Below, piece after piece: positions 58,401 to 61,400 of a stretch of DNA of 64,000 nucleotides (position 1 is its first letter; the number at the start of each line of letters is the position of its first letter). Location of the stretch: the NCBI GenBank assembly GCA_964516875.1, contig CAZFAO010000006.1, positions 17,049 to 81,048 of the forward strand, in the 5' to 3' direction. The position numbers are program-made. This stretch comes from an uncultured Burkholderiales bacterium (lineage in GTDB: Bacteria; Actinomycetota; Acidimicrobiia; IMCC26256; JAGPDB01).

Positions 58401-61400
58401 TGCAAAGCAAAATCCTCCCGTGACTTTCGTGTTCACTCCTCGACCAAACTTCATATCGTCGTTGCCACACATGCACAATGTTGCTGTGGGAACAATTGCG
58501 TGTGAAGATCAACTCAACGAACTCGTTCAAGCTTGTCAGCAGTTGGACGAGACAGGACCAGACGTTCTTGTTGTTGTTGATGACTGTGAAGACTTGGCAG
58601 AAGGAACTTTTGCGATGACAATGGAGTCGTTGATGCGAGAAATGAAACAGAAACTTCACGTTGTTGCAGCGGGTGACCCAACCGTGTTTGCTCGTGCCTA
58701 TACAGGTTGGCTGGCTGAAGTGAAAAAACCTAAGAGCGGTTTGTTGTTTAAACCTGATCCACAAATGGATGGCGATATCACAGGTGTGAAGTTACGAATT
58801 TTGCCCGGACAAACTTTCCCTCCAGGACGAGGATTCCTCTGTCTCGATCGTCAAGCAATCTTGATGCAGGTGGGGATGTAGCTAGCCGCCGAATGAACGG
58901 GCACGAATAAGCGCGATGTTGCACGCTTCATTGACATCTGCAAAATGATGATCAAATTCTTCAGCAGTTAGTCCGTGCCATTGTTTTGGTCGATTGGGAA
59001 GCAACATATTATCTTTTACTGCTTGCACTGTTTCTTCAGGTGTTGCGCCAGAAAAATTTACACAGCCCGCGTTGATCTGAAGAACAGTTCGCGTTTTCAG
59101 TTCGGGACTGTTCGTGTCACTCGTATCGATGTAACTGAACTTTGTTACAAAAGCTCTCATTTGAGTTCCTGTACCGCGTGGACCTAATTCAATGAGGTCA
59201 GATTCAATATCTTCAAACGTTGCAGCGATCTCGTCGTCTGTAATTTCCTCTCCCCAGCCTTCACTAACGAGGCGATCAATGATTTGGGCTTTTTCATTAA
59301 CGCTTAAATCACGAAGTGTTTCAATTTGTGCAACCAATAAGCCACCCTTACCTGAATCTATAATGCGTTCTGCAACTTCGAAATGATTGAGGCCTTCAAA
59401 ATCATCAATTAACGACAAGAGGGGATTGACTTCACCGCTGTTAATCAGCATGTGTGCAATTGACCTATGTGTATCAGGATGAAATGCCTCAATTCCCGCA
59501 ATAACATCACAGGCATAATCATTGACGATAAGAAATGTCGCAACATCAAGGTTCAAGTGGCGCAATGTCCCTAATGCATTAGCTAATCCATGTACATCAT
59601 GAGCATCGATGAGTTCTTGAGCACGTTGATGTGAAGCCTCTGCGGACTGCGTTCTGGAAAATGTCACCTACACACAATAGGACATAACGCCCATATTGTC
59701 AAAAAAGTTATGTTTATTTTCCCTTAAGAAGTGAGGTAAGTTTCATCCAAGCCGCTTCAAGGTCGATGGTGGTGTTCTTTGATTTCACCATTGCTTCACG
59801 GGCGGCATCGATTGCAGCCTTAGGAGCACCCGAATTCCTCAAGTTTTGCAGAACCTTGAGTTTCTGAGCGAGATCTAATCGTGATGCATCAAGAGCTCGT
59901 TTAGCCGCCGCTAATCGACTAGCTGTCGCAGTTGCAGATGTAGCAGCACCTGCAGCTCCGGCTGTTGCGGTTCCAGTAGCAGTAGCTGTTCCAGCTCCGG
60001 CTGTTGCGGTTCCAGCAGCAGTAGCTGTCCCAGCTCCGGCTGTTGCGGGAAGTGCGGCTGTTGCGGCACCCGATCCAAGAGGTATTGCGCCCGATGGAAG
60101 TGCGGCTGCTCCAGTTCCGGCTGCAGCGGCTCCGGCCCCTGCGCCACCGACGATCAACATTCCACCACCTATTACAGCGGCAGCTATTGCAGGTGTCATC
60201 GCGGCACCTTGAATCCATGGGCCGTAATGGTTCCACCACTCAGAATTTGCTCGCGCATTTTCGCTCTCTGCATTGGCCTTATCCAAGGTTTTATCCCATG
60301 GATCAGCATGCGTTGGACCTTCTTCGTAAATATCATAAACCTGACCAGCTAACTTTGCAGACGCTGCTCGGGCAGAAGCACTTTCGAGGGCAGAGGCACC
60401 AGGGTGTGCAGCATTCCATGCTTTGGATTCTTTTTCGAGTTGAGCCGCGGCACCTTGTTCACGCATTGCAGCTGTTGCTGGATCAGTAAAGAACTCTTGG
60501 AATTTCTTTCCTTCATCTGTCTTCCAATAGTCTCTGTCAGGCATGTGAGCCAGCAACTCATCTTCAAGAGCTGCTGCTGCGCTGGCATCTTTCCCATCAA
60601 CGGCAGACGCAAATGTATGAAGTTTTTCTGACAAAATACCACCACGAAATATTGCGCTCGTATGCATGGTTGCAGTTGCGTTGAAGTTTGCGATTTCCAT
60701 AGAAGCAATCATTTGCTGTCCGAGTTGTGCTTTTGTCTTTGCAAGTTCCGTTTTTGCTCGCGCTGATACTTCTACTGCTATTTCTTTTTGCTTATTTTCT
60801 GTGGCGATCCATTCTGTGTACTGATTTACATCGCCCAATGCATCGGCTATTGCTGTGAGATCGCCAGAAGCATTAGCTGCTTGGACACGAGCGTTCGCGC
60901 CAGCAAGTAATAGAACATTTTTTGCAATCATAGATGCGAGATTTGCAATAGATGCATCAGCTTCTGCAATAAGGAGATGGAGAGCGCTGATGGATTTCAC
61001 ATGACTTTTATTCATGTTCGTCAGTGCATTTAATACATTTTTCATGTGATTATCTGCACGACTACGTTCTGCTGATGCACGTGTTATGGCGTTTTTGTAT
61101 TTTGTTGCTTGAGTTTGAAGAGCACTGGTATCTACTGAAAAATCTGCCATTTTTATTACCTATATTTCGATTTTGTTGAATGCGGATTGTGCAGCTTCGA
61201 GGGCTGTTGAGGCCGGTTCGAGAACATCATTACTCAAGGTTGTGAAGATTTCGTTTTTGACTCCGTTTGATGCGTCAACAGCTTTTGAGGACATCCCTGC
61301 ACCAAACGGTTCAACAAAAAGGTGCTTATGGCACGTATCTAACGATGCAAGCGCCGCTCCAAATTCCCAACCGTATGCTTGGACAGTTCGCACGGCAATG

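Follow-up and report, generated by a model that had tools for sequence, protein, structure and literature searches.

A candidate type VII secretion substrate encoded beside essC in an uncultured Acidimicrobiia-like actinobacterium

Introduction

Effectors of type VII secretion systems (T7SS) are well mapped in Bacillota (LXG proteins) and in mycobacteria (PE/PPE and Esp proteins), but hardly in environmental Actinomycetota, and our full-text literature search found no paper naming both Acidimicrobiia and type VII secretion. Here, we examine p478, a candidate T7SS substrate of 478 amino acids encoded beside an EssC/EccC-type ATPase gene in an uncultured Acidimicrobiia-like actinobacterium. The gene lies in a 64,000-nucleotide stretch of DNA (contig CAZFAO010000006.1 of assembly GCA_964516875.1, positions 17,049 to 81,048), hereafter the window, to whose numbering coordinates refer unless another contig or locus is named.

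The closest described systems share a number of architectural themes. LXG domains have been predicted to form extended hairpins (PMC7456083) and, in TelA, the leucine of the LxG motif is residue 41 and lies in a turn (PMC10801868). An FxxxD motif has been reported on Lap1 and LapX3 and likened to the YxxxD/E export signal of T7SSa (PMC10801868, PMC12744356). EsaD of Staphylococcus aureus needs three small partner proteins for its export, and the expected pre-secretion complex is a long shaft with flexible cargo (PMC10653861). EsxX is a membrane-depolarizing T7SS toxin that is neutralized in the cytoplasm of the producer by soluble ExiAB, ExiB binding the EsxX zipper in a groove; channel-forming effectors usually have a membrane-bound immunity protein (PMC12744356).

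A sequence-only reading of the window had proposed that p478 is a T7SS effector comparable to LXG toxins, with a glycine-zipper-like membrane segment and an in-frame tandem repeat. Our analysis, for which all data come from metagenome assemblies, indicates that p478 most likely belongs to a small and undescribed family, built like firmicute LXG toxins and mycobacterial PE/PPE and EspB proteins but without detectable sequence relationship to them. We consider it probable that p478 is a substrate of the adjacent T7SS, its hairpin being presented to EssC in complex with the small protein p96 and an Esx-like pair.

Results

The p478 protein and its family

The p478 open reading frame (ORF; 59714–61150, minus strand) has an ATG start, and the features picked out earlier in its product are all in place: LAG at residues 82–84, the Trp-rich segment SEWWNHYGPWIQG at residues 303–315 and the Gly/Ala-rich hydrophobic stretch AIAAAVIGGGMLIVGGAGAGAAAAG at residues 321–345. 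Five parts can be told apart along the protein. A predicted long helical hairpin (60596–61129, residues 8–185), the proposed secretion or targeting domain, is followed by a conserved middle region (60191–60595, residues 186–320) which carries family motifs, ends in the Trp-rich segment and is modelled at low confidence. Next comes the Gly/Ala-rich hydrophobic segment (60110–60199, residues ~318–347), a probable membrane-inserting helix that holds the 19-residue Kyte–Doolittle maximum (1.94, within residues 321–345) and is the sole strongly hydrophobic stretch of the protein. The remainder consists of an Ala/Thr/Gly low-complexity linker (59927–60109, residues ~348–408), recognized by its composition and a pLDDT (predicted local distance difference test) score below 30, and of a basic helical tail (59717–59926, residues 409–478) with a pI of 10.5 and a net charge of +7. 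Residues 341–420 are 45% Ala, 19% Thr and 16% Gly.

When 1.84 billion cluster representatives were scanned in full with HMMER, residues 1–320 retrieved four homologues (P0001–P0004, E 7e-12 to 1e-6), to which a fifth, P0005, was added as a near-twin of P0003. A word-indexed search of 5.8 billion proteins returned nothing with p478 itself, and only P0003 and P0005 with the family N-terminal profile. Scans of GTDB genomes and JGI metagenomes with p478, confirmed by tblastn, gave no relatives, nor did plasmid and phage collections contain a match. The homologous loci number five, the near-identical contigs L081 and L082 being counted once, and the family alignments are very shallow (4–5 sequences each). 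At their N-termini, the four homologues can all be aligned from residue 1–3 onwards, which supports the ATG start. A spurious ORF in low-complexity DNA was rejected, as homologues and a conserved start exist, and a phage or defence origin was rejected on the basis of the phage collection, PHROGs and PADLOC.

The family shares residues 1–~310, including the motifs ERxxA, FRxLxLSxKL..F, LPDxNxWxTKEGK..FFxDPA and NAEKW, beyond which the C-termini are unrelated, of low complexity and prone to repeats. P0001, P0002 and P0004 have an equivalent hydrophobic segment, then Ala/Gly/Ser/Thr-rich repeats. The end of P0004 is an odd, basic peptide, while the Gly/Ala/Ser/Thr-rich sequence goes on in another frame, in an overlapping ORF of 115 aa (L085, 10925–11272, plus strand); P0004 is probably frameshifted within its low-complexity region and the true protein longer.

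AlphaFold2 (AF2) was given first the single sequence and then an alignment of 5 sequences, and in both runs placed two helices of ~88 residues each at positions 8–95 and 98–185 on either side of a turn at 96–97, in agreement with the helical N-terminal ~200 residues expected from sequence. Block pLDDT values over residues ~30–150 were 70–96 in the single-sequence run and 66–89 in the second, which did not yield a better model. Beyond residue ~255, pLDDT stayed below 50 in both runs except for modest confidence in the terminal helices. The helical tail proposed earlier therefore stands, as helices in the last ~70 residues, at lower confidence than the hairpin.

Neither p478 nor its four homologues matched Pfam, NCBIfam or the PDB. 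More broadly, Pfam, NCBIfam, PHROGs and PADLOC gave nothing meaningful for p478 and the four proteins encoded around it (p261, p96, p92 and p118, described below), and PDB sequence and profile searches produced no significant match for any of these five module protein families. PE, PPE and EspB profiles were without a Pfam match in the p478 family, no such chain appeared in the PDB searches, and neither a conserved WxG nor a conserved YxxxD/E is present in the alignment of the large protein. The Y208xxxD212 of p478 is not conserved: the aromatic position is Y, F or W and the acidic residue is replaced by K in the homologues.

Since the predicted hairpin and the gene order resemble those of LXG modules, p478 could be a bona fide LXG-family glycine-zipper toxin. 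However, we found no PF04740 match at E ≤ 1 for p478, none among the listed matches at E ≤ 10 for the five members, no NCBIfam match and no LXG entry or chain in the PDB sequence and profile searches. The LAG tripeptide that had been taken for an LxG motif is unconserved in the four homologues and sits inside helix 1 (8–95) instead of in a turn. The zipper-like stretch fared no better, as the published glycine-zipper pattern, (G/A/S)xxxGxxxG or GxxxGxxx(G/S/T) (PMC12744356), has zero matches in p478. Strict membership of the LXG family is thus extremely unlikely.

Type VII secretion locus

The T7SS context suspected earlier was borne out by the neighbouring FtsK/SpoIIIE ATPase of the EssC/EccC type (54256–58881, plus strand, 1541 aa), whose gene is convergent with that of p261 and abuts its end. 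The protein matches the EssC profile TIGR03928 at E 3e-173, below the cut-off of that profile, and the EccCb profile TIGR03925 above its cut-off. Residues ~23–89 of EssC (window 54256–54560) show a weak full-length match to YukD (PF08817, E 0.054, profile positions 8–76 of 76), which suggests a YukD-EssC fusion with an N-terminal ubiquitin-like domain.

The start of essC is overlapped by a gene for a membrane-anchored kinase-like protein of 518 aa (52733–54289, plus strand; PF00069, E 1e-18). Its HRD motif reads HAN in the window and in two related loci described below (L001 and L002), and its DFG motif reads DYM/DFF, which is kept in the same two loci. With one transmembrane helix and a Cys-containing extracellular domain, and no YukC match, the protein is likely, from its sequence, to be a pseudokinase with an EssB/YukC-like layout. 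Beyond it and EssC, no T7SS membrane component, nor any further core gene of the system, is recognizable in the 64-kb window, and genes of the ESX-type EccB/D/E or MycP kinds are absent from the vicinity of p478.

A search of GTDB species representatives with EssC identified four close loci, other actinobacterial EssC proteins being ~30% identical. EssC identity to the window is 81% in L001 (an Acidimicrobiia metagenome-assembled genome, MAG), 82% in L002, 67% in L003 and 65% in L004 (the Actinomycetota MAG KLAP143). The kinase-like gene, essC, rnhA and a lipoprotein gene are kept in all four at 40–82% identity, and the content of the island between essC and rnhA differs in each. It holds only an Esx-like pair in L004; the pair and a plus-strand module (97, 108, 496 and 256 aa) in L002; an L002-type module without the pair in L001; and, in L003, the pair together with a module of 107, 106 and 371 aa and three further genes on the minus strand. 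Despite the similarity of EssC, p478 was not detected by tblastn in any of them. Taken together, the gene contents identify the essC–rnhA interval as an apparent hot spot for cassette exchange. As the Esx-like pair recurs there while the other content varies, p118 and p92 are the core Esx-like pair of the locus and p96-p478-p261 an accessory cassette. Between the window and L001/L002, divergence of EssC is not clearly higher in its C-terminal domain than elsewhere in the protein, and no argument from co-variation can therefore be made.

Three further observations concern the island (window 58882–62184). Its GC content is 0.42–0.45 against ~0.48–0.50 in the flanks. Compared with L002, the effector module of the window lies on the opposite side of the Esx-like pair and on the opposite strand. 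In L003, three genes downstream of the pair (14597–17370, minus strand; 246, 280 and 395 aa) are without family matches; a Gly-zipper segment of strong hydrophobicity (GVLVGVFIG, Kyte–Doolittle 2.14) is present in the 395-aa protein, and the three form another candidate effector set.

The single hydrophobic helix, the long helical domain and the adjacency to essC would also fit an accessory membrane component comparable to EsaA or EssA, all the more as the T7SS is unusually small, with only two membrane components recognizable in the window. Against such a function, p478 is not conserved in relatives whose EssC is 65–82% identical, the KLAP143 homologue lies on another contig from an essC–rnhA interval occupied by the Esx-like pair alone, the C-terminus is hypervariable and one family member has no hydrophobic helix. 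Because p478 is not conserved with EssC, a role as a subunit of the machine rather than as cargo is very unlikely.

Small helical partner genes

On the minus strand, the order of transcription is p118, p92, a terminator-like hairpin, p96, p478, a sigma-70-like match and p261. The order noticed earlier, small helical ORFs, then the 478-aa protein, then the 261-aa ORF, was thus confirmed, and its parallel with LXG modules is kept in the few homologous loci. The gene for p96 (61160–61450), a helical partner of ~100 aa with the ribosome-binding site AAGGAG, ends 9 nt upstream of the p478 start. In all five family loci, the large gene is directly preceded by a p96 homologue, whose stop overlaps the start of the large gene in L083, L084 and L085. 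The terminator-like hairpin (61491–61517, minus strand; 12-bp stem and a T run) separates p96-p478-p261 from the Esx-like pair. Between p478 and p261, a sigma-70-like promoter match (59674–59702, minus strand; TTGACA-17-TATTGT) is a match to the consensus only, in a region with fewer such sites than its shuffled versions.

The Esx-like pair consists of p92 (61523–61801, minus strand) and p118 (61828–62112, minus strand), the latter likely starting at Met25 of the longest ORF (61828–62184), which leaves 94 aa. In the p92 family, G76, M77, F80 and D84 are invariant near the C-terminus and include an FxxxD (61550–61564 in the window) that, by analogy with Lap1 and LapX3, we infer to be an export-type motif. 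Homologues of p92 occur in L002, L003, L084 and L085, and L004 has an ORF of the same kind. The p118 family has an ESAT-6-like protein as its top PDB match (E 0.11, not significant). In all-against-all BLASTP, p118 and p92 are 27–31% identical to the Esx-like pairs of L002 and L003. L084, L085 and L088 also have p118-like and p92-like genes upstream, arranged in the order seen in the window. Comparison of the small-protein families by hhalign gave weak hints of wider kinship (p96 family and L002 108-aa family, E 0.003; p118 family and L002 WXG-like family, E 0.02). The 107-aa protein of the L003 module is a near-threshold WXG100 protein (PF06013, E 8e-6, 26.5 bits against a cut-off of 27.3).

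The p478 family is found both beside essC and as orphan modules, as has been reported for LXG modules and TspA (PMC7456083). P0001 comes from KLAP143, the MAG that carries essC locus L004, on another contig. L084 (5998–11317), L085 (5510–11272) and L088 (6259–11458) hold orphan modules of three small helical genes and the large gene between tuf and fusA. These modules adjoin divergently transcribed calpain-like Peptidase_C2 genes and a conserved gene of ~181–192 aa, which L081 has as well. The tuf and fusA genes of L088 are split into a large number of short ORFs, the probable cause being frameshifts from assembly or sequencing.

One could argue from such orphan loci that p478 is unrelated to the T7SS and is a membrane-anchored coiled-coil protein, for instance in PspA/Vipp1-like remodelling or scaffolding, that lies beside essC by chance. 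Three homologous loci are without a nearby essC, no T7SS family profile matches p478, and its top Foldseek matches are Vipp1/PspA/ESCRT-III hairpins (E 0.06–1) and alpha-pore-forming toxin subunits (SmhB/AhlB). However, these fold matches are non-significant and would be retrieved by any long hairpin; Esx-like partners, one with FxxxD, co-occur with the large gene even far from essC; P0001 belongs to a genome with an essC locus; the analogous modules of L001–L003 hold the near-threshold WXG100 gene; and a housekeeping scaffold would not be swapped between genomes whose EssC proteins are 81–82% identical. Mainly because the Esx-like partners are constant, we regard a role outside the T7SS as improbable.

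C-terminal cassette and downstream partner

The downstream gene encodes p261 (58882–59667, minus strand), an acidic soluble protein of 261 aa (pI 4.7, net charge −22) that we propose as a neutralizer or chaperone of the C-terminal cassette of p478. It has no family or PDB match; a word-indexed search with its profile recovered only p261 itself and P0007, and the JGI metagenome scan with the p261 alignment gave no relatives.

In L001 and L002, p261 homologues (~256–261 aa, ~32% identical) lie directly downstream of proteins of 492 and 496 aa that bear a similar tail, although BLASTP of p478 against the L002 protein returned nothing. After residue ~320, both proteins are arranged like p478: a hydrophobic stretch rich in Gly comes first, then a low-complexity region of Gly and Ala and, last, a helical tail. 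Their hydrophobic stretches carry canonical glycine zippers (SLIVGGLAG, AGGVGAFAG and GAGFGWAGT). In a Smith–Waterman comparison, the p478 tail and the tail of the L002 496-aa protein scored at z 6.4, a score reached by none of 500 shuffles; phmmer with the p478 tail against 10,421 ORFs from all fetched loci gave self matches only. The N-termini (first ~206 residues) of the L001–L003 family were linked to the p478 family by a single hhalign result, at 74% probability (E 2.8e-5).

The distribution of p261 follows that of the tail. P0002 has a helical tail, whose similarity to that of p478 is not significant by Smith–Waterman, together with a p261-like neighbour; the p261 homologue downstream in L081/L082 is more distant (20–23%). 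The tail-less members P0001, P0003/P0005 and P0004 have no p261-like neighbour, and the L003 371-aa protein combines an L002-type N-terminus with a different C-terminus and no p261 homologue. The 261-aa ORF thus travels with a particular C-terminal tail, as expected of the cognate downstream partner it had been taken for. These sequence comparisons suggest that the C-terminal cassette is swappable, with p261 as its cognate partner; a C-terminus and downstream partner that appear to move jointly between N-terminal carriers follow the logic of polymorphic toxin/immunity systems.

Tandem repeats

The near-perfect in-frame tandem repeat seen earlier was recovered by TRF (59953–60048, minus strand; 2.5 copies, 96% matches, no indels, score 178). 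Its 39-bp unit corresponds to 13 codons. The self-match at lag 39 spans 57 nt with at most 2 mismatches, compared with a mean of 15.7 and a maximum of 21 in 300 codon-preserving shuffles of this low-complexity stretch; as none of these approaches the observed value, the repeat reflects a recent duplication and not an effect of composition.

It had been suggested that such repeats could change copy number by slippage. No copy-number variant of the 39-bp repeat was found in p478: across 2,456 bp that take in the repeat, the sole other assembly with the gene (Logan SRR8893623, contig L086) is 100% identical. P0003 and P0005, by contrast, form a sister pair whose loci are 99.8% identical across 4.6 kb and whose first 276 residues are 100% identical, but a C-terminal unit of 75 bp (25 aa) is present in 2 copies in P0003 and 5 in P0005. 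Quick change in the copy number of C-terminal repeats is therefore shown for the p478 family, not for p478 itself. The Logan assembly breaks at window positions 60872–60893 (p478 codons ~86–93, at the predicted hairpin tip): contig L087 ends at 60894 and L086 starts at 60871, with 22 nt uncovered. This break may reflect strain polymorphism.

Repeat variation of this kind raises the possibility that p478 is exported by the T7SS but is a non-toxic envelope or surface protein with a fast-varying C-terminus, as in PE_PGRS and PPE-MPTR proteins, p261 then being a chaperone like EspG or EsaE. All family C-termini are low-complexity sequences rich in Ala, Gly, Thr, Ser or Pro with internal repeats, p478 and P0003 have undergone recent tandem duplications, and the small helical gene that precedes the large one is coupled to it in translation, as is the case in PE–PPE pairs. 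A recognizable toxin domain, a canonical zipper and a membrane immunity gene are lacking, and one family member does without the hydrophobic helix. The analogy with PE_PGRS proteins drawn earlier thus holds for the repeat-variable, Gly/Ala-rich C-termini; it does not extend to PE or PPE profiles, which have no match, or to the large protein, which is without conserved WxG or YxxxD/E. Moreover, the low-complexity region is C-terminal to the hydrophobic helix, an awkward position for a linker across the wall should the exported end be the N-terminus, and co-inheritance of tail and p261 across two N-terminal families is a classic polymorphic toxin/immunity signature. On this evidence, a non-toxic surface protein is possible but rather unlikely.

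Other features of the window

The remainder of the window is ordinary chromosome, with ligA, gatA, ilvB/D, menaquinone genes, a two-component system and rnhA. It includes a gene for a NpmA-type 16S rRNA (adenine1408-N1) methyltransferase (49317–49994, minus strand; PF24675, E 2e-50, above cut-off), an enzyme of the aminoglycoside-resistance type on an environmental actinobacterial chromosome. Positions 251–2635, 7381–10482 and 34478–37273 encode large GGDEF-EAL proteins, three in all, whose sensor domains are of the CHASE or PAS type. Another GGDEF-EAL protein adjoins the P0001 module of KLAP143 (L083, 5220–7601).

Discussion

The observations gathered here can be arranged into a mechanism in which p478 is cargo of the adjacent T7SS. 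Residues 1–~190 are predicted to form a long helical hairpin, which would pair with the co-translated p96 and probably also with the Esx-like pair p118/p92, as the conserved gene order suggests. As export signal, EssC would recognize the FxxxD that is invariant at the C-terminus of p92. The C-terminal third, judged from its sequence features and from sister genomes, may be a swappable cassette made of a Gly/Ala-rich hydrophobic helix, an Ala/Thr/Gly linker growing by tandem duplication and a basic helical tail. After export, this cassette could insert into a membrane and perturb it, by analogy with TspA, TelE and EsxX. In the producer cytoplasm, the acidic and soluble p261 might bind the cassette and mask it, in line with their co-occurrence, their complementary charges and the precedent of ExiAB.

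We favour a membrane-active effector over the other roles considered because the cassette and its partner are co-inherited, because of the hydrophobic helix and because of the precedents in firmicutes. The complete chain, including antibacterial membrane toxicity and p261 as a cytoplasmic neutralizer or chaperone, is proposed tentatively; we would lean slightly against every one of its steps holding.

Several points weigh against p478 being such an effector. The proposal draws on sequence and models from an uncultured organism. The AF2 models are confident for the hairpin only (mean pLDDT 53–54), and Foldseek against the PDB returned generic long hairpins only, none at E ≤ 0.001. Sequence and PDB-profile searches gave no tie between p478 and any known T7SS substrate family, and the WXG100 profile (PF06013) had no match at E ≤ 10 for p96, p92 or p118. 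Three of the five homologous loci show no essC within up to 10 kb on each side; to that extent, the occurrence of homologues outside T7SS contexts, which the sequence-only reading had named as telling against it, was observed, with the small Esx-like partner genes still present in these loci, just as in orphan LXG modules. The canonical glycine zipper is missing from p478 and no membrane-bound immunity protein is encoded near it. In P0003 and P0005, the repeats are rich in Pro, Thr and Lys and the hydrophobic helix is absent. Finally, the C-termini of the family are of low complexity and variable in their repeats, not globular toxin domains, and resemble variable surface proteins more than toxins.

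Whatever its activity, the locus offers a compact and comparable set of modules, in which the flanks are conserved, the interior is exchanged and one C-terminal cassette, with its partner, is common to two N-terminal families; it also offers an Esx-like protein bearing an export motif. Confirmation of the module would show that a design in which a hairpin targeting domain is combined with small helical adaptors and swappable cargo reaches beyond the families that can be recognized by sequence, and would make a new pair of cargo and partner available for tests of membrane activity. If p478 is instead a surface protein, it would provide a non-mycobacterial case of repeat-variable T7SS surface proteins. 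A bolder interpretation, which we consider doubtful, is that p478 and the proteins of L001–L003 give a first glimpse of an actinobacterial counterpart of LXG proteins outside mycobacteria. These would be polymorphic T7SS effectors with hairpins diverged beyond profile recognition, a new type of swappable membrane-active cassette (Gly/Ala-rich hydrophobic helix, linker able to expand and basic tail) and a new family of soluble acidic neutralizers. The machine exporting them would be a stripped-down one that mixes T7SSa-like and T7SSb-like features, composed of an EssB-like protein derived from a kinase and of an EssC to which a ubiquitin-like domain is fused.

Comparison with known systems

The LXG-Lap systems of the firmicute T7SSb (TelA-LapA3-LapA4 and TelC-Lap1-Lap2) resemble the p478 module in several respects: a predicted extended helical hairpin of ~190 residues at the N-terminus, small helical partner genes directly upstream, one of them with a C-terminal FxxxD, a variable C-terminus with a directly downstream partner gene, and a location in a strain-variable island beside essC, with orphan modules elsewhere in other genomes. 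In contrast, p478 has neither a PF04740 match nor a conserved LxG in a turn, its host is an Acidimicrobiia-like actinobacterium and not a member of the Bacillota, and the C-termini of its family are low-complexity and repeat-rich instead of globular enzymes. In addition, the FxxxD is found here on a protein that also acts as a member of the core Esx-like pair.

The toxins EsxX, TelE and TspA, together with ExiAB, share with p478 a Gly-rich hydrophobic helix near the C-terminus and an adjacent gene for a soluble protein that, in the case of p261, could mask the helix. The likeness does not extend to the zipper pattern, which p478 does not have, to DUF5085 or any other family, none of which matches p261, or to a polytopic membrane immunity protein of the ExiCD/TsaI type, which is absent from the p478 locus. 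Conversely, p478 adds a low-complexity linker and a basic helical tail.

With the mycobacterial PE/PPE proteins (PE_PGRS and PPE-MPTR) and EspB, the module has in common a gene for a ~100-aa helical hairpin whose translation is coupled to that of a larger protein, encoded downstream and helical in its N-terminal domain, C-termini that are Gly/Ala-rich and variable in their repeats, and an export motif of the YxxxD/E type on a small partner. It differs from them in that p478 has no profile match and no conserved WxG or YxxxD/E of its own, and in its presumably monoderm host and the lack of EccB/D/E or MycP genes nearby. EsaD of S. aureus, with EsxB, EsxC and EsxD, is similar in that the gene of a large substrate is preceded by those of three small helical proteins, but p478 shows no sequence relationship to it, no nuclease domain and no homologues of EsaE or EsaG in its surroundings. 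All five protein families of the module are without annotation. Their design is a known one, in which a T7SS substrate made of a helical targeting domain and variable cargo is served by small adaptors.

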